From an uncultured Candidatus Saccharibacteria bacterium (lineage in GTDB: Bacteria; Patescibacteriota; Minisyncoccia; UBA6257; WO2-44-18): DNA of 64,000 nt. Location: positions 14,788 to 78,787 of the forward strand of contig CAZWVU010000004.1 of the NCBI GenBank assembly GCA_964637575.1. The letters are read 5' to 3'. This document shows positions 13,657 to 60,803 of the stretch, one piece after another (positions within the stretch are counted from its first letter, which is position 1; each line of letters starts with the position of its first letter). A model generated the notes under the pieces. The model saw only the letters and a list, made by a program, of their open reading frames with translations, was not told where the DNA came from and ran no database searches. A program made the position numbers and the translations under genes.

Positions 13657-13992
13657 ATGGCGAAGATTCAAACCGAGGTGGGCGAGGTGAAGCGTGTATG
13701 CGCGCCGAGCTGCAAGAAGAATCTGAAGCATGAGCCGTGCGCATGCACCGAAAAAACGAAGGTGGTAACCAAGGTGGAGATTTTCGCGGTCTTCGAAGGA
13801 GTGCGGCGGTACCGGGCCTATTTCTCCCCGAATCCCAGAAATCCCGGAAGTCTGCCGAGGATTTCCAACAAGGAGCGCTTCAATGAGCAGGGCCAGCCGG
13901 AGGAAGTGAACGTCCAGATTCCGGACACCATCTACGTGGTCATGGCCCGCCGCGCCCTTGCCATCATCAACAGCGGAGCCCCTCAACTATGA
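13657..13992 (+). CDS. Hypothetical Cys-rich small protein
   Basis: GGAGGAGG RBS before the ATG at 13657. CAPSC...CAC cluster. No known domain. Confidence 0.45.
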   Translation: MAKIQTEVGEVKRVCAPSCKKNLKHEPCACTEKTKVVTKVEIFAVFEGVRRYRAYFSPNPRNPGSLPRISNKERFNEQGQPEEVNVQIPDTIYVVMARRALAIINSGAPQL

Positions 13993-14037
13993 GGGGCTTT
14001 TTCTTTCGCAACGCCCGACGCCGGCGCTCCTTCTCCT

Positions 14038-14074
14038 CGGCAGGACGTCGGGCTACAATCCTGCCTGCGGGAAG
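14038..14074 (+). repeat. Solitary copy of the 37-nt dispersed repeat (variant CGGCAGGACGTCGGGCTACAATCCTGCCTGCGGGAAG) with complementary flanks
   Basis: 35/37 identity to the 6661 unit. Flanks GCCGGCGCTCCTT / AAGGAGTGCCGGC can pair. Confidence 0.8.
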
Positions 14075-14156
14075 GAGTGCCGGCTCATTGAGAGAAAGAG
14101 GTAAGTTTGTGTGGATTAGTTTCAAGCGCAAGTGTGTTAAAATTAGACCATACGTT

Positions 14157-15434
14157 ATGCCGGCTAAAACGGTTAAAAAACCGACGGAAAATAAGGTGGA
14201 AGAAAAGCCCGCGAAGTCAGGCGGCGCTGACGCGGTAAAAGGCGAACTTTCCAAATCACCGAGCGAACTTTCCATCATCAAGCTGGTGGACAGCCTGGTG
14301 CAGGCGGCGTTTCTGGCGCGCTCTTCCGATATCCACATCGATCCCGGCGAAAAACAGATCGCGGTGCGTTTCCGGATCGACGGAGTTCTTCATGATTTTT
14401 ATGTCTTCCCGAAAGAAATTCAGTCCGAGGTAATCAGCCGCATCAAAGTCCTCTCAGGGCTTCGGACCGACGAACACCAGGCGGCCCAGGACGGACGTTT
14501 CCGGCTCACCTTCGACACGGTCAACGTGGATGTCCGCGTCTCCATCGCGCCGACCTACTATGGGGAAAATTGCGTGATGCGTCTGCTTGCCGATCAGGCG
14601 GCGTCATTCACGCTGGAGTCGCTGGGATTTGAAGGCCGCGACCTGGAAGTAGTGAAACGGAATATCAAAAAACCGTACGGCATGATTCTCGCCACCGGCC
14701 CGACCGGCTCCGGCAAGACCACCACGCTCTATACGATTTTGAAAATGCTCAACACGAAAGATGTTTCCATCATCACCATCGAAGATCCGGTGGAATATTC
14801 CATCGACGGACTGGAACAGATCCAGGTGAACTCGCGCACCGGACTGAGCTTCGCGAGCGGGCTCCGCTCCATTCTCCGCCAGGATCCGAACATCGTCATG
14901 GTGGGCGAGATCCGCGACGAGGAGACTGCCGGCATTGCGGTAAACGCGGCGCTGACCGGCCACCTGCTTCTTTCCACGCTTCACACGAACGACGCGGCAA
15001 CCACCCTGCCGCGCCTGCTGGATATGAAAATCGAGCCGTTCCTGATCGCTTCCACCGTTAACGTGGCGGTCGGCCAGCGGCTGGTAAGAAAAATCTGCCC
15101 CGACTGCAAAGTGAAAAAACCGGTCGGCCCGGATGAATTGAAGAGTCTCGCGAGCGTGATTCCCGCCAAAGTGCTGGACGCGGCGAAGACGTTTTACCAT
15201 GGCGAAGGATGCGCCAAATGCGACCACAGCGGCTACAAGGGGCGCATCGGCATCCATGAGGTGATGGAGATCGACGACGAGGTCCGGGTGGCCTTGATGA
15301 AGAGCGCCGACGCGGGAGAAATTAAAAAGATCGCTGTGAAAAACGGCATGACGACCATGGTGGAAGACGGATTCCGCAAAGCGGTGGACGGCGTTACCAC
15401 CATCGAAGAAGTATTGCGCGTCATTCATGAATAA
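14157..15434 (+). CDS. pilB: Type IV pilus assembly ATPase PilB/GspE family (short form)
   Basis: Walker A GPTGSGKTT. Asp box, His box and tetracysteine motif (CPDC...CAKC). ~425 aa. Confidence 0.85.
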   Translation: MPAKTVKKPTENKVEEKPAKSGGADAVKGELSKSPSELSIIKLVDSLVQAAFLARSSDIHIDPGEKQIAVRFRIDGVLHDFYVFPKEIQSEVISRIKVLSGLRTDEHQAAQDGRFRLTFDTVNVDVRVSIAPTYYGENCVMRLLADQAASFTLESLGFEGRDLEVVKRNIKKPYGMILATGPTGSGKTTTLYTILKMLNTKDVSIITIEDPVEYSIDGLEQIQVNSRTGLSFASGLRSILRQDPNIVMVGEIRDEETAGIAVNAALTGHLLLSTLHTNDAATTLPRLLDMKIEPFLIASTVNVAVGQRLVRKICPDCKVKKPVGPDELKSLASVIPAKVLDAAKTFYHGEGCAKCDHSGYKGRIGIHEVMEIDDEVRVALMKSADAGEIKKIAVKNGMTTMVEDGFRKAVDGVTTIEEVLRVIHE

Positions 15435-16506
15435 AACCTCGTTTCTTTCCGGCATCTTCACCCGCGTGCCGATCGAGGATCAGGTGCTTTTGGCGCGCCA
15501 CCTTGCCGTGATGGCGAAGGCCGGGCTGCCGCTCCTGGAAAGCGTGAAGATGATCCAGAAGGAGACGAAGAGCAAGAGTCTGAAAAAAATCCTTGATCAG
15601 GTGGTGGTGGACGTGAGCAACGGCCAGTTTCTTTCCGCGAGCCTGGAAAAGCATAAAAACGTGTTCGGCAATCTTTTCATCAACATTATCCGGGTGGGCG
15701 AGTCGGCGGGCATTCTCGCGGAAAACCTTAATTACCTCGCGGACGAGCTGAAAAAGAAGCGGGAACTGAAGAAAAAAGTGACCGGCGCGCTTATTTATCC
15801 GGCGGTGATTTTTGTGGCCACCTTCGGCATCACCGGATTGCTCACCGTGTTTATCTTCCCGAAAATCCTGCCGATTTTTAAAAGTCTGAACGTCGAATTA
15901 CCGATTACCACGCGGATCCTGATCTGGCTGAGCAACGCGCTCACGAATTACGGCCTGTATCTGATCCTGGGCCTACTGGCATTGCTTCTCGGAATTTATG
16001 GCATCTCGCTGATCCAGAAAGTCCGCTATTTTCTGCACTGGGTATTGCTGAAGCTTCCCATTTTCGGCAACATTTCCCGCAGCGTCAACCTGGCTAATGC
16101 CAGCCGCACGCTCGGCCTCACGCTCAAAAGCGGCGTCCGGGTGGTGGAGGCGGCGACGATCACCGCCGAGTCCCTCACCAACCTTGTCTACCAGCGGGAA
16201 TTACTGAAGGCGGCGGATCTGGTTCAGCGGGGAGAAGCGCTCGGACCGATTCTGGAAAAGCACCCCAAACTTTTTCCCTCGATTGTCACGCAGATGGTCG
16301 CGGTGGGCGAGGCGTCCGGCAATCTAAGCGAAACGCTGCTGTATCTTTCCGACTTCTACGAAGGCGAGGTGAATGAAATTACCAAAAATCTTTCCAACGT
16401 GCTTGAGCCGATTCTGATGGTAACGATGGGCATCGTGGTGGGATTTGTCGCGATTTCCATCATTACGCCGATTTATGAAATCACTTCAAGCATCAGCCCG
16501 CGCTAA
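15427..16506 (+). CDS. pilC: Type IV pilus inner-membrane platform protein PilC/GspF
   Basis: Two GspF repeats. TM segments. Overlaps the pilB stop by 8 nt. Confidence 0.85.
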   Translation: MNKTSFLSGIFTRVPIEDQVLLARHLAVMAKAGLPLLESVKMIQKETKSKSLKKILDQVVVDVSNGQFLSASLEKHKNVFGNLFINIIRVGESAGILAENLNYLADELKKKRELKKKVTGALIYPAVIFVATFGITGLLTVFIFPKILPIFKSLNVELPITTRILIWLSNALTNYGLYLILGLLALLLGIYGISLIQKVRYFLHWVLLKLPIFGNISRSVNLANASRTLGLTLKSGVRVVEAATITAESLTNLVYQRELLKAADLVQRGEALGPILEKHPKLFPSIVTQMVAVGEASGNLSETLLYLSDFYEGEVNEITKNLSNVLEPILMVTMGIVVGFVAISIITPIYEITSSISPR

Positions 16507-16939
16507 GGGGAAGGGCGCGGGGTTCACCCTGCTGGAAACGCTGCTCGTCGTGTCCATTCTGGCGCTGCTGTTCGCGATCGGGTTGCCGGTGGCGTTCAAT
16601 TTCTATCAGGCCTACCAGTTTGATTCGGAATACGAACTCCTTTTTTCCCTACTGGAACAGGCGCGCAATCAGGCGCTGACGAATTATCATGAGGCAAGCC
16701 ACGGTCTTTCCATTAACAGCGTGAACTTCGTGCTGTTTCAGGGTTCCAGTTTCGCCGCGCGCACCGCGGCGCAGGACAAAACCTTTCCCCGCAATTCCGC
16801 CATTACCATCGCCGGCCCCTCGGAAGTGGTCTTCAGCCAGCTGGACGGTACCGTGGCGTCGAGTACGTTTACGGTGAGCAACAGCTACAAAAGCCACGAT
16901 CTTTATTTGAATTCGGAGGGATCGGTGTATTCAAAATAA
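16475..16939 (+). CDS. Prepilin-type (pseudopilin/minor pilin) protein
   Basis: Class III signal KGAGFTLLETLLVVSILAL with Glu at +5. Confidence 0.7.
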   Translation: MKSLQASARAKGKGAGFTLLETLLVVSILALLFAIGLPVAFNFYQAYQFDSEYELLFSLLEQARNQALTNYHEASHGLSINSVNFVLFQGSSFAARTAAQDKTFPRNSAITIAGPSEVVFSQLDGTVASSTFTVSNSYKSHDLYLNSEGSVYSK

Positions 16940-18408
16940 TGAAAATTTTGAATTTAAAATTTACAATTTTAAAAAAAGAAGAAGGGCAGTCGCTTGTTGA
17001 GCTCCTGGTCGCGATCGGCATTTTCAGCATCGCGACGGCCGCCGGCTTCAGTTTATTTTTCGGCGGGCAGATCATCTCCACCGACAGCTCCAATATCAAT
17101 CTGGCCACGGATTACGTCCGGGAGGCGCAGGACGCGCTCCGCGCGATCCGCAACCGCAATTTTACCGAACTGCTCACCGACGGGCCGCACGGCTTTACCT
17201 TCAACGGATCGGAGTGGCTCCTGTCGTCCAGTACCTCTGACACGAAAGATGTGTTTACGCGGCAGGTGAACATCGCCAAGGGGGATTCGGATAACATCAA
17301 GATCGCCACCACCACCGTCACCTGGTCCAGCGCCGATCCCAGCCGGACCGAAAGCCTTACCTTCGTCGAGCAGTTTACCGACTGGGAAACGCCGCTCCAG
17401 AGCAGCTGCAAGTCGCAGGCGCTGACCGGCGACTGGACGAATCCGGTTACGCTTGGTTCGGCGGATATCGGTTCGGGAAATTCCGGGACGGACGTCGTCG
17501 CCAAAGGCAGTTACGCCTACGTGAGCGGTACCGCTTCTTCCGCGAGCAAGCCGGATATTTTTGTGTTTGACGTGAGCGCGCCCGCGGCGCCGGTGCAAAA
17601 GGCTTCACTCAACGTTACCAACGGAGGAATCAACGCGCTTTTCCTGAATGGCAATTACCTCTACGCGGCTTCGCCCGACAACAGCAAGGAATTTCTGGTC
17701 TTTGACGTGACTACCCCGACCAGCATCACTCTCAAGGGTTCGCTGGATTTAACCGGCAACGATGACGCGCTTTCGGTAGTGACGATCGGCACCACTGCGA
17801 TCGTCGGACGGCAAGGAAGTGCCGCCAAACAGATCTCGTTTATTGACGTGAGCGACCCGGCCAATCCGAGCGTGATCAAAGAATTCACCAGTCCCAATGG
17901 CGGCGATATTACCGATCTCGCCTACACGGACAACCGGCTCTACGCGACGAATTATCTTGCCAACGGCACCGCCGACATCCTGACATTCGATATCACCGAT
18001 CCCAGAAACCCCACCTATATCAGCAGTTACGATGTTCCCGCCACGGACAAGCCGCTTTCCGCGTACGTGGAAATCAAAGCGGGCGGCACCAATCTTCTGC
18101 TGGGCGACGGCGACAATGAACTGGTGGCGGTGGGGGCGACAACCACGAGCGGCATGTACGTCCGGAGCCGGGTGAACGTCGGGGGCAAGGTGAATGATAC
18201 CGTCTGCGTGCTGGGCAATCTCGCGTTTCTCGCCACCGATAACCAGAACGCCGAATTTACCGTGGTGAATGTGAATAATCTCAACAGCCTTTCCGTGTAC
18301 TCAACTCTGAATTACCCGAATTTCGCGACCGGAATCGATTTCGACAGCAACAAGGTCTACATGGCGGTGCGAAGCAACGACGCGCTGCGCATTATCACGT
18401 CGCAATAA
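16939..18408 (+). CDS. Large pilin-like protein: prepilin N-terminus fused to LVIVD-repeat beta-propeller (putative pilus tip adhesin)
   Basis: Leader ...EEGQSLVELLVAIGIF with E at +5. Four or more LVIVD-type repeats (IFVFDVSAPAAP, LVFDVTTPTS, ISFIDVSDPANPS, LTFDITDPRNPT). Confidence 0.65.
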   Translation: MKILNLKFTILKKEEGQSLVELLVAIGIFSIATAAGFSLFFGGQIISTDSSNINLATDYVREAQDALRAIRNRNFTELLTDGPHGFTFNGSEWLLSSSTSDTKDVFTRQVNIAKGDSDNIKIATTTVTWSSADPSRTESLTFVEQFTDWETPLQSSCKSQALTGDWTNPVTLGSADIGSGNSGTDVVAKGSYAYVSGTASSASKPDIFVFDVSAPAAPVQKASLNVTNGGINALFLNGNYLYAASPDNSKEFLVFDVTTPTSITLKGSLDLTGNDDALSVVTIGTTAIVGRQGSAAKQISFIDVSDPANPSVIKEFTSPNGGDITDLAYTDNRLYATNYLANGTADILTFDITDPRNPTYISSYDVPATDKPLSAYVEIKAGGTNLLLGDGDNELVAVGATTTSGMYVRSRVNVGGKVNDTVCVLGNLAFLATDNQNAEFTVVNVNNLNSLSVYSTLNYPNFATGIDFDSNKVYMAVRSNDALRIITSQ

Positions 18409-34302: not shown

Positions 34303-35211
34303 TTACAGCCACTTTTTCTTTTTGAAGAAAATGATCAGGCCGATCACGGTGATGCCGAGCACAATAAAGATCGTCCAGAACCGGAGCGGCGTCGCGGTAA
34401 TGAAGTTTCCGATAAAGCTGACGGAGAGGAGCGACGTGAACAGCCCGAGGGGAATGGCGAGAAACGCGAGGATGGTAAATCTTTGCATGACCTTGTTGGT
34501 TTTGGCACTCAAGAGCTGGCCGTTGGTCTCCTCGAGGGCCTCGATCGTGGCCTGGTAGTTTTCCACGTGCTGGGTGACTTTGGAATAATCGCCGGCGAGA
34601 TCGGAAAGATAAATCTGATTATTCTCCCCCCAGAACTTTCTTCCTGTTTCCACAAGCGATTCCAGGAGAATTTCCTGGGGCGCGCTGATGACGCTGAAGT
34701 CCAGGACGTCGCGTTTTGCGTAGGAAATCTTTTCCAGCATCTCGTCCTCCTTACCCTTGAAAATTTCCTCGGAGATGGTGCGGATGTTGTCTTCCACGTG
34801 GCGAAGCTGGCGGAGGGAAAAATGGATGATCTCCTGGATCAGGAAATAGACGCACTGGGCGGTGTCATCCAGCGCTTTGGTTTTGAAATGAACATTGTTG
34901 TTGAGCGAACGCATGAAGGCGTCGATCGGTTCGAGGTCTTCGTAGTGCACGGTGATTACCTGCTTCTTCGTGATCAGAAAATCTATTTCCGCCCGCCGGG
35001 AAGTTTTCAGGGTCTTGTCGTAGACGGGCAGATGGTAGGTGAGGAAAAGGTAGGTGGGATAAAATTCGACGCGGGAGCGGTTGGAAAGATGAAGAAGCTC
35101 GTCGAGAATGATCGGGTGGAACTTATGCTGTTTTTTTAAAAAATCAATGTCCGACTTGGTCGGTTTGAGAATATCAATCCAGGCGGCGTTGTCAGATTTG
35201 GTTATCCACAT
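34303..35211 (-). CDS. corA: CorA-family divalent cation transporter
   Basis: Cytoplasmic alpha/beta domain and two C-terminal TM helices with a GNF (GMN-like) loop. 302 aa. Confidence 0.7.
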   Translation of the reverse strand: MWITKSDNAAWIDILKPTKSDIDFLKKQHKFHPIILDELLHLSNRSRVEFYPTYLFLTYHLPVYDKTLKTSRRAEIDFLITKKQVITVHYEDLEPIDAFMRSLNNNVHFKTKALDDTAQCVYFLIQEIIHFSLRQLRHVEDNIRTISEEIFKGKEDEMLEKISYAKRDVLDFSVISAPQEILLESLVETGRKFWGENNQIYLSDLAGDYSKVTQHVENYQATIEALEETNGQLLSAKTNKVMQRFTILAFLAIPLGLFTSLLSVSFIGNFITATPLRFWTIFIVLGITVIGLIIFFKKKKWL

Positions 35212-35231
35212 CTATGTCATGATTATAATAT

Positions 35232-35882
35232 ATGAAGGAAATATTACGAAAACCGCTGGTCTGGCTGAATATTATTTCCCTTACATTTGTGGGCATTTTG
35301 ATCGCGGGTCTGGCGTTCGGCTGGAATAATCCGGTCGCGGCGCCGGCGGGGGGAAGCGGGGCGATCAGTGTAAGTCCGGCCGGAAACGTGGGCATCGGCA
35401 ACAGTGTGCCGGGCGCGAAACTGGATATTGCCGGCAACGTGCAATGGAGCGGCACGCTTCTGAACGGAGCGGTGCCATGGGCAAGGCTGTCGGCGTTTCC
35501 GGCCGCCTGTCCCGCCGGGCAGTTTGTCAGTCAGATCGGAGCCGGCCTTGTCTGCGGGGTGCCGCCATCTTCGAGCGGCGTCACCGGCAGCGGCACCATA
35601 GGAAATATTGCTGCGTGGACGGGAGTGTCATCGCTCGGGAATCTGACTGGAACCGTCACGTTTCCCGGAGATATCAATGTCCCCGGTCTTATCACGGGAT
35701 CCCAGACCACCGTTTCCGGACCTCAAGCCTTCAATTCTTCCGGCTACTGGGGAGGCGCGGCCTTTGGCACTACCGGCGGAGCCTGGTCCAAAGTCTGCCC
35801 GGCCGGGCAAATTATGGTGGGCATAGGCCAGGCAACCAACGGAAGTCTCCCGACGCCGTACATCATTTGCGCGCCTCTGTAA
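35232..35882 (+). CDS. Membrane-anchored surface protein, tail-fibre-like N-terminal motif (paralog 1)
   Basis: N-terminal TM followed by GWNNP...APAGGSGAI...GNVGIG...KLDIAGN. Gly/Thr-rich C-terminus. Confidence 0.55.
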   Translation: MKEILRKPLVWLNIISLTFVGILIAGLAFGWNNPVAAPAGGSGAISVSPAGNVGIGNSVPGAKLDIAGNVQWSGTLLNGAVPWARLSAFPAACPAGQFVSQIGAGLVCGVPPSSSGVTGSGTIGNIAAWTGVSSLGNLTGTVTFPGDINVPGLITGSQTTVSGPQAFNSSGYWGGAAFGTTGGAWSKVCPAGQIMVGIGQATNGSLPTPYIICAPL

Positions 35883-35909
35883 TACTCGATTTGCTATAAT
35901 AAAAAGCAA

Positions 35910-36539
35910 ATGAACAATCTATTGAAAAAGCCGTTATTTTGGACCAACGTCGCTGCAGTAACGTTAACCGGACTGGTAATCGCCGGGGTGGCGTTCGGGT
36001 GGAACAGTCCTCTGGCGGCTCCGACGGGCGGAAGCGGGGCGATTGTGACGGACCTATCCGGTAACGTGGGAATCGGTATTGCGGCGCCAACTCAGAAGCT
36101 GGATGTCGCGGGCAATGTCAAAGGAACCGGGCTGTGCATCGGATCCGACTGCCGCGCAGCGTGGCCGACATTTTCCGGCATCACCGGCCTGGGGACGGCA
36201 AATTATCTTCCAAAGTTTACCAGCGGCAATGCAATTGGCAATTCGCAGGTATTTGATAATGGTACGAACGTTGGTATCGGTAATGCCGCTCCAACGCAGA
36301 AGCTGGACGTGACCGGTAATGCCAACATTAGTGGCACGATCCGCGGTGCCACATACGGCTTTGGCGGAATCTACGTGAACCACGTCGGCGTTGGTGGATT
36401 TACCACGTGCTCGGTGGCCAATCCGTTCACGAATGCCTGTAACTGTCCGACAGGTTTTACGGCGAAGCTTTTTTCCTATACGGGTAGCGCTTTGAACGGC
36501 AGCATTAACGATAATCCTACTTACTTTTGCTGGAAATAA
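35910..36539 (+). CDS. Membrane-anchored surface protein (paralog 2)
   Basis: Same N-terminus (KKPLFWTNVAAVTLTGLVIAGVAFGW...GGSGAI...GNVGIG...KLDVAGN). Second NVGIGNAAPTQKLDVTGN repeat. Different C-terminus. Confidence 0.55.
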   Translation: MNNLLKKPLFWTNVAAVTLTGLVIAGVAFGWNSPLAAPTGGSGAIVTDLSGNVGIGIAAPTQKLDVAGNVKGTGLCIGSDCRAAWPTFSGITGLGTANYLPKFTSGNAIGNSQVFDNGTNVGIGNAAPTQKLDVTGNANISGTIRGATYGFGGIYVNHVGVGGFTTCSVANPFTNACNCPTGFTAKLFSYTGSALNGSINDNPTYFCWK

Positions 36540-36543
36540 TTTA

Positions 36544-37263
36544 ATGAACAATCTTTTTAAGAAACCTTTATTTTGGACCAACGTCGCCGCGGTAACCTTG
36601 ACCGGGCTGGTGATCGCCGGGGTAGCGTTCGGGTGGACCAATCCGAATGTGACGCCCGCCGGCGGCGGGGGAGCGATAACTGTTGATGCCAGTGGCAACG
36701 TGGGAATTGGCGGCCTGCCGAACGCGCTGGCCAAGCTTCGTGTGGCCGGCAACCTGCTGGTTGATAGCGGTTTTGGAATCACGCTTGGCGGAATAACCAG
36801 GACGACCTGGCCTTACGGCGGCTCGGGAGTCTTCTGTTCCACTGCGACAGGTTATCTGGATTGCTATATCGCGGGAGTGGACAAGGTCTACACCTTGACC
36901 GCCACTGCCAGTGGCGGTCCCATCACCCCATCGGTCACCTCGGTCAGCACTCCCGGCGTCATGCCGTATTCCAATATGGGTTGCAGTACTTCTACCGGAT
37001 ACCTCGACTGCTACGTTAACGCGACAGACAAGGTATACACCTTAACTGCCATTACCAGCGGCGGCCCGACCACTCCGTCAGTCACTTCTGTCAGCACCGT
37101 GGGCGTGCGACCGCTCTCCGGAAGTAAATGCACCTCCGCCACATACCTTGCGTGTTACATTACCGCCCCCGATAAAGTGTACACGTTGTCCGCTACCAGC
37201 AGCGGCGGCCCGATCACTCCGTCAGTTACTTCCGTCAGCACGGTGGGCGTGATGGTTTATTAG
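36544..37263 (+). CDS. Membrane-anchored surface protein (paralog 3) with three ~45-aa tandem repeats
   Basis: N-terminus nearly identical to paralog 2. C-terminus holds 3x repeats (TGYLDCY...DKVYTLTA..SGGP.TPSVTSVST.GV). Confidence 0.55.
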   Translation: MNNLFKKPLFWTNVAAVTLTGLVIAGVAFGWTNPNVTPAGGGGAITVDASGNVGIGGLPNALAKLRVAGNLLVDSGFGITLGGITRTTWPYGGSGVFCSTATGYLDCYIAGVDKVYTLTATASGGPITPSVTSVSTPGVMPYSNMGCSTSTGYLDCYVNATDKVYTLTAITSGGPTTPSVTSVSTVGVRPLSGSKCTSATYLACYITAPDKVYTLSATSSGGPITPSVTSVSTVGVMVY

Positions 37264-37278
37264 GTGGGCGATCGGCAG

Positions 37279-37307
37279 TTGACTCCCGGGCTTTTATTAA
37301 TTAAAAT
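37279..37307 (+). promoter_or_regulatory. Sigma70-like promoter of the grpE-dnaK-dnaJ operon
   Basis: TTGACT (37279-37284), 17-bp spacer, TAAAAT (37302-37307). ~10 nt before the grpE ATG. Confidence 0.5.
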
Positions 37308-37316
37308 TTCCCTGCA

Positions 37317-37778
37317 ATGGATGAATCACCTGTAGGAGAACTCGAACAACTGAAAAAGGAACGTGACGAATACCTCAACGGCTGGAAACGCGCCAAGGCC
37401 GATCTGATAAATTATCAGAAGGAAGAAGCGGCCCGGCTGGAAGATGTTATCCGGTATGCCAAAGCGGGAATGGTAAAAGATCTGATCGCCGTGCTGGATA
37501 GTTTTGAACTCGCGCTGTCCGTAATGGAAAAAGATGGCAGGAGTGAAAAAGGAATATTTATGATAAAGGGACAGCTGGAGGAGGCGCTCAAGCGGGCGGG
37601 AGTGGAGAAGATATCCGTCGCGGTCGGCAATCCGTTCGACGCTAATTTCCAGGAAACAGTTGCCGAGAGGGAATCCGACCAGCCGGCAGGCACTATAATG
37701 GAAGTGGCGGAACAGGGATACATGCTTCAGGGTCGCGTCATTCGTCCGGCGCGGGTAATATTAAGCAAAGAAAAATAA
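37317..37778 (+). CDS. grpE: Nucleotide exchange factor GrpE
   Basis: Coiled-coil N-terminus and GrpE C-terminal beta domain. 153 aa. Upstream of dnaK. Confidence 0.9.
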   Translation: MDESPVGELEQLKKERDEYLNGWKRAKADLINYQKEEAARLEDVIRYAKAGMVKDLIAVLDSFELALSVMEKDGRSEKGIFMIKGQLEEALKRAGVEKISVAVGNPFDANFQETVAERESDQPAGTIMEVAEQGYMLQGRVIRPARVILSKEK

Positions 37779-37790
37779 TATAATTACATC

Positions 37791-39668
37791 ATGGCAAAAA
37801 TAATCGGTATTGATCTCGGCACCACCTATTCGGAGGTCGCAGTCATGGATACGGCCGGTCCGCGCATTCTGGAAAACGCCGAAGGCATGCGGATCACGCC
37901 GTCCATGGCGGCGATCAGCAAGTCCGGCGAGCGGCTGGTCGGCCTTTTGGCGAAGCGCCAGGCGGTGACCAACCCCAAGAACACGATCTTTTCCGTGAAG
38001 CGGCTGATCGGCCGGAAATTTACCGATGCCGAGGTTCAGCGCGACAAGCAATGGCTGCCGTACGACATCCGCCAGTCCGAGAGCGGCGGCTGCGAAGTGA
38101 AAATGGGCGACCGGTGGTACAAGCCGGAGGAAATTTCGGCGATGGTGCTCGCAAAACTGAAAGCCGATGCCGAAGCGAAGCTTGGCGAGAAAGTAACGGA
38201 AGCGGTAATCACCGTGCCGGCGTATTTTGACGACAGCCAGCGCCAGGCAACCAAAAATGCCGGCGAGATCGCAGGCCTGAACGTGCGCCGCATTCTCAAC
38301 GAGCCGACCGCCGCGGCGCTCGCGTATGGTTTGAATAAACAAAAGAACGAAAAGATCGTTGTCTACGATTTCGGCGGCGGCACCTTCGACGTTTCCGTGC
38401 TGGAGGTAGGGGACGATACGGTGGAAGTGAAGGCGACCGGCGGCGACACCCATCTCGGCGGCGATGATCTGGACAAGCGGATCATTGAATATCTGGTCAA
38501 CGAATATAAAAAACTGGAGGGCGTGGACCTTTCCAAGGATGCGCTCGCGATCCAGCGTCTAAAGGAGGCCGCGGAGCGCGCCAAGCATGAGCTTTCCACC
38601 GCGTTTGAAACGGAGATCAATCTTCCCTATGTCACTTCCGACGCGTCCGGCCCCCGCCATTTCCTGATGAAACTTTCCCGGAGCAAACTGGAGGAGCTGG
38701 TCCGCGATCTGATCGACAAATCGGTGCAGATCCTTGACGCGACCATCAAAGAAGCCGGGTTCGCCACGGCGACTATCAACGAGATCGTCCTGGTCGGCGG
38801 CCAGACGCGCATGCCGGCGATGCAGGAGGCGGTCAAAAAATATTTCGGCCGCGAACCGCACAAAGATTTGAACCCCGACGAGGTAGTAGCGCTTGGCGCG
38901 GCGGTGCAGGCGGAAATTCTCGCGGCGAAAGACGAGGGCCGCAAGCCGGAGGGCGACGTGAAGGATATTCTTTTGCTCGACGTCACTCCGCTCTCCCTCG
39001 GTATTGAGACCCTGGGCGGCGTCTTCACGAAATTGATTGAGAAGAACACGACCATTCCGACCGCGAAATCACAGGTATTTTCCACCGCGGCCGACAACCA
39101 GACGTCCGTGGAAATCCATGTGTTGCAGGGAGAGCGGCCGATGTCCGCCGACAACAAAACGCTCGCCCGGTTCATTCTGGACGGCATCCCGCCGGCGGCG
39201 CGCGGCACTCCGCAGGTGGAAGTAACCTTCGATATCGACGCCAACGGTATTTTAAGTGTGTCGGCCAAGGACAAAGGCAGCGGCAAGACTCAGTCCGTGC
39301 GCATTGAAGCAAACACCAGTCTTTCCAAGGATCAGATTGAGAAGTTGAAGAACGAGGCGGCGCAGTATGCCGAACAGGACCGGCAGAAACAGTCGCTGGC
39401 GGAAGCCCGGAACAATGCCGAAAATCTCGTCTACGTCTCCGAAAAAGCGGTGAAGGACGCGGGCGACAAGATTTCCGCGGAGATAAAGGATGCCATTAAT
39501 AAAAAAATAGAAGCGCTCAAAGCGGTGAAGGACGGACAGGATGCCGGCGCGATTAAGAATGCGGCGAATGATCTTTCCTCCGAGATCCAGAAGATCGGCG
39601 CCCAGATGTACGGGAATCCTCCGGCGGGTTCGGGAAATGCCGGCGAACCGCCGAAGCAAGAACAGTAA
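37791..39668 (+). CDS. dnaK: Chaperone DnaK (Hsp70)
   Basis: [20 protein letters not shown] and full NBD plus SBD. 625 aa. Confidence 0.95.
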
Positions 39669-40594
39669 TGACCAGAGTTTCCAGTAAGAAAATCGCGCTG
39701 GGTATCGCCGGAGTATGCGCGGCGCTGCTTTTCGGATACTGCTTCAGCGGATTCATCGCCGCGGCGACCGCGGTGAGTTTCCTCGGCGTGTGCGCGAGCG
39801 CGGCGCTGTTTCTCTCCCTTTTCCTGATTCAGGTGATGGTGGCCGCGGACGTGAAAACCACCATGCTCTTTGTCGTGCTGGAAATCGCCGCGATAAGCGT
39901 GTTTCAGATCGGGAATTTTTCCCCGGTGCTGGGCGCCGGAATTCTCGCAGGTGCCGGATTCCTGATCATGGCCTACTACGGCGGAGTCTCAGAAATTAAA
40001 AGCCGCCTGGATATTGAATTCACGAAAACCTCCCGCGTCATTATGGGATCGGCCACGCTCGCGCTTGCCCTGTTTGCCAGCTTTGCCTACGTCAATTCAT
40101 TCGATCTGAAGAATCCCGCCGCGGCGCGGAAGAATCTTGAGGTGATCATCAAGCCCGCTGAGCCGATCGTGAGCCGGTACATCCCGAATTTTTCCACGCA
40201 GAACACGCTCCGCGAGATCGCGGCAAAAATGCTGCCCGCGAGCGAGCGCCTCTCCTCTCCCGCCGACCAGGCCAACACCATCTCGCAGATTTCCGTCAAT
40301 CTCACCGACGCGCTCGCCAAACTCACCGGGGCCAGAATTGCGCCGACGGACCGGGTTATTGATGTCGTGTACAAAGCCACCCTTGGGAAGGTCGTATCCC
40401 TGCCGCCGTTGACGCAGACAATCGTCCTGATTGCCTTCGGGGTGATCTTTTTCTTTTTTATCAAATTCATCCTGTTCTTCGTGGACTGGGCGGCCGTGGG
40501 GATAGGCTACGGCTGGTACCGGCTTCTGAAAGCCGCCGGCTTTTTTGCCATCGAGATGCAGAACGTTCCGAAGCGTGTTATAGTAATTCAATAG
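39668..40594 (+). CDS. Hypothetical polytopic membrane protein inside the dnaK operon
   Basis: 308 aa with several TM segments. Lies between dnaK and dnaJ. Confidence 0.5.
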
Positions 40595-59060: not shown

Positions 59061-59135
59061 GGTGCCTATAGTTTAGTGGTAAAACACCGCTCTGTGGCAG
59101 CGGATTCGAGGGTTCGATTCCCTCTAGGCACCCCA
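59061..59135 (+). tRNA. tRNA-His (GTG) with encoded G-1 and CCA
   Basis: G-1 pairs with C73. Acceptor GTGCCTA/TAGGCAC. Anticodon loop CTGTGGC. T arm GAGGG-TTCGATT-CCCTC. Confidence 0.85.
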
Positions 59136-60803
59136 GACGGTATCTAATATAACCGCAGAAGGTTCGTTAGATATCATCACAGGAATCTCGGCATTACGTC
59201 GGGATTTTTGTGTTTTAGGGGCGACTAAGGCTTTTGATTTACCAGCGATCACTGGTGTGAACTCCACCGCCATGTCAGTCACGATCCGTGGTTTCTGGCA
59301 CTCTTTGTATTTCTCAGTGAAGATCAGACCTTCGGCTTGCATCAAGGCTCTTATAATCGGGCTTGGTATGACCGTCACCACTTTCTTATCCGTCACCTCA
59401 AACCGTTCCCAGTAAAGGCCTAGGAATAGTCGCTTCATTTCGTCCGGAGCTTTCATGTATGCCTCGTATGCGTTTCTCACAAAGAGCAGGATGTCTTGGA
59501 GCTCATCAATCCGCATATTAAGCTTCTTATCTTGGGCGTAGAGTTCGTCCTGTATGCTCTCGACCTGTTCTTTTATTTTCACTTTGATTCGAGTGAAGTC
59601 ATCATCTGAAATCAATCCACCGAATAATTTCTCCTCGGCAGTGTCACGCTTCTTTTCAAGTATCATCTTTTGCGTATTTAGTCCTTTCTTATCTTTATTT
59701 ATGACTTCCTTCCGACCGCTGTATATTTTCTCAATCTTGGCGACCATTCGTCCCACAAATGTCGGAGTGAATTCAATCAGTTTGAAAAGGTCAGCGATCT
59801 GCTGTTCCAAATCCCAGACTTCCACATATTTGTCCGAGCATTTGATCTGATCGCCGGAACGGTTGCAATGATAGTAAGATTTATTTTTCTTTGGGTGATG
59901 TTCGGCTGTGTATCTTTGTCCGCAGACGGCGCAGTAGGTCAGACCTCGCAGTATGAAGTTAAACTTTTGCCTACGACAGGCATAGCGGTTATGTTCGGCC
60001 ATGACCAGCTGGGTGCGTTCCCATATTTCTTTTGTGATGAGTGGTTTGTGTTTACCAACACCCACCAGTCCTCGCCAACGCATCTCCCCGTAGTAAAACT
60101 GATTCTTAAGTATCTCAATCATCTTGCTGTGAGCTAGTCGCTTACCGGCATGAGTCCTGAACCCTTTCTTATACAAAGCATCACGGACTTCGTAGACTGA
60201 ATAATCTCCAGTCACATACATGTTGAATGCTTCCTGGATAAGCGGCGCACGTTCTTCGTCTACAACAATGATCCTCTTTTTCTCATCGCTTGGATCACCG
60301 GCATTCAAGTAGCCGGAAGCCACACCTGTCGGCCACCAGCCATCTCGGAATTTCTGTTCAAGGCTCTTCAAAGTTTTTCTCGATGTGATTTGCGACTGGA
60401 GTTGGTTCACGCCAGCTATCACTAAGTCCATAAAGTTTCCTTCCGGAGAGTCAGTTATGCCGGGTTGCGATACGGAAAACAATTCAACCTCATGTTTTTT
60501 GAGGATCGCTTTGATTTGCATATGGTCGAGGGCATTTCTCGCCAGTCGGTCGGTGTCTTGAATAAATACTGCGCGGATAGCTTTATCATCTTGGACTCGA
60601 AGCAACATGTCTTGGAGCCCGGGACGATTCATATTGGTGGCGGATCGTCCTGGGTCTTCGAAGACTCCTTCGTTTGCCAGTTTGTATTTGTTGCTTTCCT
60701 CGATCGCTCGTTTACAGAGTTTGAGCTGTGTGGTGAGGGAATGGTGGCCGTCCTCGGCCTGTTCTTCAGTCGAGACTCGGCAGTAGATTAATGCATGTTC
60801 CAT
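59124..60803 (-). CDS. Large serine recombinase (resolvase N-domain, recombinase domain, zinc ribbon, coiled coil)
   Basis: LIYCRVSTEEQ catalytic Ser motif. CAVCGQRY...HCNRS zinc ribbon. 559 aa. Its last 4 codons overlap the tRNA-His 3' end. Confidence 0.85.
   Translation of the reverse strand: MEHALIYCRVSTEEQAEDGHHSLTTQLKLCKRAIEESNKYKLANEGVFEDPGRSATNMNRPGLQDMLLRVQDDKAIRAVFIQDTDRLARNALDHMQIKAILKKHEVELFSVSQPGITDSPEGNFMDLVIAGVNQLQSQITSRKTLKSLEQKFRDGWWPTGVASGYLNAGDPSDEKKRIIVVDEERAPLIQEAFNMYVTGDYSVYEVRDALYKKGFRTHAGKRLAHSKMIEILKNQFYYGEMRWRGLVGVGKHKPLITKEIWERTQLVMAEHNRYACRRQKFNFILRGLTYCAVCGQRYTAEHHPKKNKSYYHCNRSGDQIKCSDKYVEVWDLEQQIADLFKLIEFTPTFVGRMVAKIEKIYSGRKEVINKDKKGLNTQKMILEKKRDTAEEKLFGGLISDDDFTRIKVKIKEQVESIQDELYAQDKKLNMRIDELQDILLFVRNAYEAYMKAPDEMKRLFLGLYWERFEVTDKKVVTVIPSPIIRALMQAEGLIFTEKYKECQKPRIVTDMAVEFTPVIAGKSKALVAPKTQKSRRNAEIPVMISNEPSAVILDTVWGA

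Follow-up and report, generated by a model that had tools for sequence, protein, structure and literature searches.

We identified three tandem genes, W_1, W_2 and W_3, in a 64,000-nt stretch of DNA from an uncultured Candidatus Saccharibacteria bacterium (GCA_964637575.1, contig CAZWVU010000004.1; the whole stretch is hereafter called the window), and the family that they form is real, coherent and apparently undescribed. With a probability of about 0.6, we interpret the encoded proteins as exported cell-surface mini-fibres, a branch of the chimeric fibre proteins of S74/MAT type that is specific to Patescibacteria. The genes lie on the forward strand at 35232–35882 (W_1, an open reading frame (ORF) of 216 aa), 35910–36539 (W_2, 209 aa) and 36544–37263 (W_3, 239 aa), with intergenic gaps of 27 and 4 nt, respectively. 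An earlier note made from the letters alone (the original prediction) had called three same-strand paralogs here, and ORFs were found at exactly these positions. W_1, W_2 and W_3 are paralogous genes sharing an N-terminal module of ~70 aa: their alignment contains 46 invariant columns, nearly all within the first ~70 aa, and their heads are 65–79% identical in DNA over 135 nt. A search of 5.8 billion proteins with W_2 as the query returned W_3 at E 4e-20 and W_1 at E 6e-15, a degree of sequence similarity far above chance level; database entries of identical sequence exist for W_1 (P0033), W_2 (P0001) and W_3 (P0015). The Pfam scan of W_1–W_3 gave zero hits at E≤10, Pfam and NCBIfam scans of W_1–W_3 together with ten homologues yielded nothing above threshold, and no extra copy of the family motifs was found in any frame of the window. 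The predicted layout of the proteins runs from a conserved leader through a Pro-rich linker (NPxxxPPxGSGAI) and one or two fibre units to a disulfide-containing tip. In W_1 the leader and one fibre unit are followed by a VPWxRL..CPxGQF..C module, a GSGT unit and tip A; in W_2 a CIGSDC hairpin, a GxGT..KFT unit and a second fibre unit stand between the first fibre unit and tip B; and in W_3 a linker connects the single fibre unit to tip C.

The fibre unit is defined by the motif GNVGIGxxxPxxKLxVxG, which occurs on the forward strand once in W_1 (GNVGIGNSVPGAKLDIAGN, 35382–35438), twice in W_2 (36060–36116, and NVGIGNAAPTQKLDVTGN at 36267–36325) and once in W_3 (GNVGIGGLPNALAKLRVAGN, 36694–36756). 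The second W_2 unit belongs to repeat family D3 and is 80% identical in DNA to the first, and W_1 carries in addition a Cys-bridged insert (VPWARLSAFPAACPAGQFVSQIGAGLVC, 35472–35555, forward strand) that is common to P0008, P0010, P0027 and P0035. The original prediction had described GNVGIG...KLxVxG as tail-fibre-like, and tail-fibre profiles do match it. W_1 and W_2 matched PHROG tail/tail-fibre families (phrog_3269 at E 3.6e-8; phrog_9942), while the search of W_3 against PHROG gave no tail/tail-fibre family. Furthermore, a profile of the N-terminal module (A3, 15 sequences) matched the solved Bdellovibrio MAT fibres, namely Bd2133 (8ond) at E 4.7e-12 together with 8ojn, 8ol4, 8oml and 8on4, and the match was confined to the fibre unit. 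In these fibres a capping-loop consensus, V-G-G/N-pi-x-x-P-x-x-x-L, is set on intertwined trimeric beta-helices; the same consensus is present in MyRF, and similar beta-helical structures occur in phage T5 pb1 and K1F endosialidase (PMC10769870). By sequence, the fibre motif of W_1–W_3 is the same as this capping loop, known from S74-type fibres with a trimeric beta-helix. We therefore propose, on the model of the solved relatives, that the fibre units would decorate an intertwined trimeric beta-helix, that the stalk would trimerise, and that one cell would display three alternative tips, which would act as ligand-binding heads for attachment to host cells or a substrate. The role in adhesion or host recognition is suggested by the relatives and by the lifestyle of the phylum.

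The closest known system is the MAT family of Bdellovibrio bacteriovorus (Caulton et al. 2024, PMC10769870), with which W_1–W_3 have the fibre unit in common. Both show a constant N-terminal part followed by interchangeable C-terminal tips, which fold independently in MATs (PMC10769870). Variable MAT tips are S74 or another adhesive fold; the window holds three mutually unrelated tips, the syntenic genes of other genomes hold further ones, and homologues include lectin and S74 tips. Both systems also have several paralogs per genome, and the host of the MATs is a bacterium that lives on other bacteria. In contrast, MATs are about 600–1,100 aa long and W_1–W_3 only 209–239 aa, with one or two fibre units; in place of the ~130-aa beta-rich N-domain of MATs, W_1–W_3 have a hydrophobic leader and a Pro-rich linker; the genes sit together in a single conserved slot, in Patescibacteria; and tips A, B and C are not among the tips described for MATs. 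Judged from sequence, W_1–W_3 thus fall outside the MAT superfamily proper on N-domain and size, while motif and design principle are common to both. Phage fibres and spikes of the S74 type (T5 pb1, K1F endosialidase) likewise share the capping-loop motif and, presumably, the trimeric beta-helix, and some homologues of the family end in the S74 chaperone domain (PF13884), a relationship supported by the PHROG tail matches. W_1–W_3 differ from them in that PF13884 is absent by Pfam scan, the genes have no phage context, and the proteins start with a putative N-terminal export segment.

W_1–W_3 occupy a slot between corA (34303–35211, reverse strand, assigned from the Pfam CorA match on an identical contig and from synteny) and grpE (37317–37778, forward strand), and the gene order of the region is dnaB, cysS, corA, W_1, W_2, W_3, grpE, dnaK (37791–39668), a 308-aa ORF and dnaJ. 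The same slot, with one to three family genes and differing tips, was found in at least nine other Patescibacteria assemblies. It encodes proteins of 150, 321 and 271 aa in GCA_964503795 (L003), 325 and 297 aa plus an unrelated 262-aa ORF in GCA_016182295, a "Harrisonbacteria" assembly (L006), 154, 389 and 277 aa in GCA_030646995 (L010), and 140, 200 and 202 aa in Parcubacteria GW2011_GWA2_47_8b (L015). Two metagenome-assembled genomes hold 192 and 305 aa (L013) and a single gene of 236 aa (L014), and metagenome contigs hold 195 and 262 aa (L009, which ends short of corA), 394 and 358 aa (L017), and 148 and 311 aa (L018). One more metagenome contig (L019) was counted apart, as only a single family gene was seen on it, a tip-C gene of 234 aa upstream of grpE whose own upstream ORF is unrelated. 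The slot genomes are distant from the window, with 67–76% identity in CorA, 57–72% in CysRS and 81–85% in DnaK. Besides tips A and C, the slot carries glycine-rich tips, Cys-rich tips ("TGPG..C..C") and others; tip A is the commonest, and all three known tip-C genes stand last before grpE. Homologues elsewhere carry a C-type lectin (PF00059) or Peptidase_S74 (PF13884) domain, and one source name reads "ConA-like lectin". The original prediction of a constant anchor with swapped distal domains therefore extends to at least nine other assemblies, but the diversification that it proposed is seen only at genus or family depth and not within populations. Duplication, module exchange and loss would have reshuffled both the number of slot genes and their tips over long evolutionary time.

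The slot comparison bears directly on the best-surviving alternative, namely that W_1–W_3 are structural components of the envelope and not adhesins, for example surface-layer spacers or struts, or accessories of the type IV pilus or the cell wall, with tips that touch the cell's own envelope polymers. A slot kept beside housekeeping genes in every related genome, the recurrence of tip A in several slot genomes, as a core structural role predicts, the short, Gly/Ser/Thr-rich proteins and the type IV pilus genes in the same window are all consistent with such a role. However, the remaining slot genes vary in tip type and number between genomes, as core structural parts seldom do. Lectin-type tips occur among the homologues, and the closest relatives that have been characterised serve as adhesive fibres (PMC10769870). 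We regard the structural explanation as rather unlikely.

Several further features of the slot were observed. The start codon of the divergent corA lies 20 nt from that of W_1. Perfect TATAAT hexamers occur at 35224–35229, ending 2 nt 5' of the W_1 start, and at 35895–35900, 9 nt 5' of the W_2 start, and no Shine–Dalgarno sequence is visible at either start; W_1 and W_2 may be transcribed from separate promoters as leaderless or near-leaderless mRNAs. W_3 and grpE are separated by 53 nt, within which a promoter-like TTGACT-17-TAAAAT is located at 37279–37307. The fibre genes stand in the position held by hrcA in many bacteria; hrcA was not found at its usual site ahead of grpE (37264–37316), and the CIRCE operator was found nowhere in the window. 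Among the tips of the other genomes, the glycine-rich type of L003 (6999–7964, P0016), also present in P0038 and P0024, starts FVVPAGVTQLxVEVYGGGGGGG and presumably resembles the glycine-rich domains of phage minor tail proteins. The unrelated 262-aa protein encoded by the third slot gene of L006 (9954–10742) has a signal peptide and an outer-membrane beta-barrel-like sequence. Cultivated Patescibacteria have been reported to be monoderm, and such a protein is odd for a phylum regarded in this way. Finally, two related populations, the window type and the GCA_964503795 type, occur together in one sample (L005 and L001, both from SRR8931230); their CorA proteins are 70% identical, and their slots differ in tips, A/B/C in the window type versus Cys-rich/Gly-rich/A in the other.

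Export of the proteins is suggested by the leader. In W_1 it comprises aa 1–31 (35232–35324, forward strand), with a basic N-terminus and a hydrophobic segment of ~22 residues that ends in AFGW and shows a G26xxxG30 pattern. Each protein has one N-terminal hydrophobic segment (Kyte–Doolittle 19-residue mean 1.8–2.3; 2.28 in W_1), long enough to span the membrane, and the conserved leader pattern is KKPLFWTN...GLVIAGVAFGW. The cysteines are even in number (4, 6 and 6 per protein) and all C-terminal to this segment, and the arrangement therefore fits export and disulfide bonding. Only ~19 residues (N32–A50) lie between the hydrophobic segment and the start of the first fibre unit, too few to accommodate an N-domain of the MAT type. 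Across paralogs and genomes, the first 70 aa are 45–74% identical, comparable to GrpE (49–58%), so the leader is as conserved as the housekeeping proteins of the same genomes. Over the first 33 codons, W_2 and W_3 show 11 synonymous and 3 non-synonymous differences, indicating purifying selection and no recent gene conversion. A generalised form, a helix ending [A/G]W[T/N/Q]xP[S/T]xxPPxG(N), was found in 41 of the best 120 homologues (P0021–P0117), and the residues ahead of the W fit the -3/-1 rule of signal peptidase (VYA|W and VFA|W in relatives, AFG|W here). The original prediction had called the leader a signal-anchor helix. Its sequence fits a membrane anchor, in which GxxxG would serve helix packing, but also a long Sec signal that is cleaved off, and the conserved mature start points to a signal dedicated to the processing, sorting or docking of fibre-like proteins in Patescibacteria. 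We also considered whether the proteins are type IV pilins or pseudopilins. The class III pilin signal consists of a short basic leader with G at -1, F or M at +1 and E at +5 before the hydrophobic helix. This identity was rejected, as the leader MNNLLKKPLFWTN lacks the class III G-F/M...E pattern and gave no N_methyl Pfam hit.

The three C-terminal tips had been predicted to be unrelated to each other, and this was upheld at the sequence and profile level: BLASTP between tips A and B was not significant, and hhalign of B against A and of B against C gave a probability of ≤0.5%. A homology between the W_1 and W_2 tips had been suspected from a CPxG...C pattern near both C-termini and was dropped, as neither BLASTP nor hhalign supported it. 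Tip A (35697–35879, forward strand) is characterised by W...CPxGQ[IFY]MxGIxQ...G...C-A-[KP]-L at the C-terminus, as seen in a seven-member alignment (A5). It is also present in P0003, P0004, P0006, P0007 and P0010 and in the sole slot gene of L014, and comparison with the PDB and Pfam gave no match.

Tip B (36333–36536, forward strand) is a single module of ~68 aa with the pattern GTIRGATYGFGGxY...NPxTxxCxCPxGFT...YFCWK. An exhaustive HMMER scan found 218 cluster representatives at E≤1e-3; full-length matches carry the module mostly at the extreme C-terminus, in proteins of 64–1,675 aa, many of which contain several fibre units. As judged from these matches, tip B is a general and widespread type of cap, found on the fibre proteins of many bacteria. 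When a tip B profile (A4, 18 sequences) was searched against the PDB with hmmsearch, it matched MPEG1/perforin-2 (PDB 6sb1, 6sb3, 6u2j) at E 1e-10, with matches starting at 358, 466 and 511, the third of which is weak alone. The P2 domain of perforin-2 is pseudo-threefold, with three repeats of three strands and a conserved disulfide; the lipid-binding hairpin Y427–V452 is part of repeat 1, and a C-terminal tail starts at A577 (Ni et al., PMC6989145). The three match sites coincide with the repeats of Ni et al., and the hits therefore map to all three of them. Tip B and the P2/MABP repeats have in common the motif FGGxY...NPxTGxxSCPxG[FY], including the cysteines. They differ in that tip B has one module per chain versus three in P2 and no extended basic hairpin, and in that tip B caps a fibre whereas P2 follows a MACPF domain. 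P2 was reported as a new topology whose relationship with MABP is undetectable by sequence analysis. Tip B is a bacterial relative of P2 that sequence comparison does detect, and it sits at the end of fibres that are presumably trimeric. This suggests an origin for the pseudo-threefold symmetry of P2: tip B would correspond to one copy of the P2 module, and a homotrimer would rebuild the P2/MABP domain with true threefold symmetry. AlphaFold2 models tip B as a sheet of four strands, with a predicted local distance difference test (pLDDT) score of 83.

Since P2 binds acidic bacterial lipids (PMC6989145, PMC6753088), its resemblance to tip B, together with a leader that could be a cleaved signal, might indicate that the proteins are secreted or contact-dependent effectors, with tip B targeting host membranes to damage or permeabilise them. 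However, they contain no MACPF or other lytic domain, the cluster has no immunity-like gene, tip B caps fibres in many bacteria, and the ligand of P2 is not transferable to tip B because the lipid-binding hairpin has no counterpart there. An effector function is thus improbable.

Tip C consists of three repeats of 49 aa (36835–36981), 49 aa (36982–37128) and 44 aa (37129–37260, extending to the C-terminus of W_3), all on the forward strand and each with a C-x7-8-C pair; the pattern of repeat 1 is C-x8-C...DKVYTLTA..SGGP.TPSVTSVST.GV. The three tandem repeats had been predicted correctly; their size, given as ~45 aa or ~135 bp, was not, as the spacing is 147 and 144 nt. The repeats are 68–77% identical in protein and 69–76% in DNA, and of the 49 codons compared between repeats 1 and 2, 21 differ synonymously and 14 non-synonymously. 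P0005 (34% identity, pairwise E 8e-14) and P0043 end in homologous tips, the latter recognised within the W_2 homologue hits. Tip C is rare. A word-indexed search and a two-sequence profile returned only the query, so no relatives beyond P0005 and P0043 were found; the tip C profile gave 0 hits in the PDB, and a pattern scan of JGI metagenome contigs gave none. All three known tip-C proteins (W_3, P0005 and P0043) have three repeats, and in W_3 as in P0005 identity is higher between repeats within the protein (68–77%) than between proteins (30–43%). The triplication was therefore independent, or the repeats were homogenised long ago. We suggest that, most likely, the structure requires three repeats per chain and the repeats do not form a variable array.

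The original prediction that the repeats are prone to slippage or recombination was contradicted by these data: the longest exact DNA runs common to the repeats are 8–14 nt, Tandem Repeats Finder reported no array, and the repeats of W_3 are not unstable. The copy-number variation that it led us to look for was absent as well, with three copies in all three known tip-C proteins and with two contigs from other sequencing runs and samples that match the window at 100% identity over 5.5 and 6.4 kb. These results largely refute, already, a view of the cluster as a contingency locus with programmed or fast variation, whether by repeat slippage or recombination in W_3, by gene conversion between paralogs or by a diversity-generating retroelement (DGR) elsewhere in the genome. 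Tandem paralogs with a common 5' module, internal repeats in W_3 and a within-protein repeat identity compatible with past concerted evolution as well as with independent triplications would fit such a locus, but the synonymous differences between repeats and between the W_2 and W_3 leaders speak against recent exchange, and we consider it very improbable. DGR-diversified surface proteins of the Candidate Phyla Radiation and of phages (C-lectin targets of the Mtd type) likewise combine a constant scaffold with a variable distal part, and in the same phylum. However, W_1–W_3 have neither a template/variable repeat pair nor a C-lectin variable region, and their diversity is that of whole-module replacement. 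No reverse transcriptase was found among the 20 window ORFs scanned (282–787 aa), and the 64 kb contain no second or template copy of the W_1–W_3 region. A reading of the genes as DGR targets was accordingly dropped, in agreement with the original prediction that a DGR is unsupported. Tip diversity is most probably not produced by programmed hypermutation or phase variation.

That W_1–W_3 are phage tail-fibre genes stranded in the chromosome as a prophage remnant or cargo is scarcely credible, for although the fibre motif matches PHROG tail families and a serine recombinase and a low-GC segment occur elsewhere in the window, the recombinase is 22 kb distant, the flanking genes in the window and in the syntenic assemblies (cysS, corA, grpE, dnaK) are not phage structural genes, the identical housekeeping slot holds family genes in at least nine other divergent assemblies, the local GC of W_1–W_3 is like that of its surroundings, the proteins have a putative N-terminal export segment, and pattern scans of IMG/VR viral contigs for the leader and tip B found no relatives.

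The interpretation of W_1–W_3 as surface mini-fibres has to be weighed against several points that tell against it. The proteins are 4–5 times shorter than MAT fibres and lack their conserved N-domain of ~130 aa, and just one or two fibre units may not suffice for a stable trimeric beta-helix. The link between tip B and P2 is one of sequence profiles: when the tip B model was searched with Foldseek, neither the PDB nor BFVD yielded a significant match, and tip B has no insertion corresponding to the hairpin Y427–V452. The AlphaFold2 model of tip C, built from three sequences, is unusable (pLDDT 49). If the leader is cleaved, retention at the surface would lack an explanation, and the episymbiotic lifestyle of the source organism is assumed from its phylum.

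More tentatively, with the odds against it in its entirety, one may imagine the corA–grpE slot as a host-range or attachment cassette of a Patescibacteria lineage, in which minimal fibres on a membrane anchor or conserved leader exchange their tips as modules. Tip B would then be the free-living ancestor-type of perforin-2 P2, a bacterial homotrimeric fibre cap triplicated in-chain into the pseudo-threefold membrane-binding domain of an animal immune pore-former, and tip C would have taken the same step, from trimer to three in-chain repeats, independently. Work on attachment in Patescibacteria has to date centred on type IV pili, and our literature search found no paper tying Patescibacteria to MAT-type fibres. 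A 2025 study of Saccharibacteria pili (PMC12206443) describes host recognition and binding by ultra-small episymbiotic Patescibacteria as largely unknown. The slot supplies concrete, easily located candidate host-binding determinants that are small enough for expression and crystallisation, and its fixed address upstream of grpE–dnaK permits comparison across genomes and correlation with host range.

Elsewhere in the window, type IV pilus genes encode a PilB-like T2SSE ATPase (13989–15434) and a PilC-like T2SSF protein (15427–16506), followed by a 489-aa LVIVD-repeat protein (16939–18408). Type IV pili are the other known class of attachment machinery of Patescibacteria, and these genes lie ~17 kb from the fibre genes. 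An ORF of 307–309 aa is located between dnaK and dnaJ in the window (39668–40594) and in L003 (11259–12188), L006 (13125–14048) and L010 (11264–12193); it forms an insert in the chaperone operon and has no Pfam match, and the window copy looks hydrophobic by eye. The GC-richest part of the window (0.61) encodes a sensor kinase of 787 aa with MASE1, PAS, HisKA and HATPase domains (83–2446), which is large for a reduced genome. At the other end, a large serine recombinase (59124–60803; Resolvase, Recombinase and Zn_ribbon_recom domains) adjoins a tRNA gene (59062–59132), and the GC content falls from about 0.55 to 0.40–0.43 beyond 60 kb; the segment 59062–64000 is probably an integrated element.

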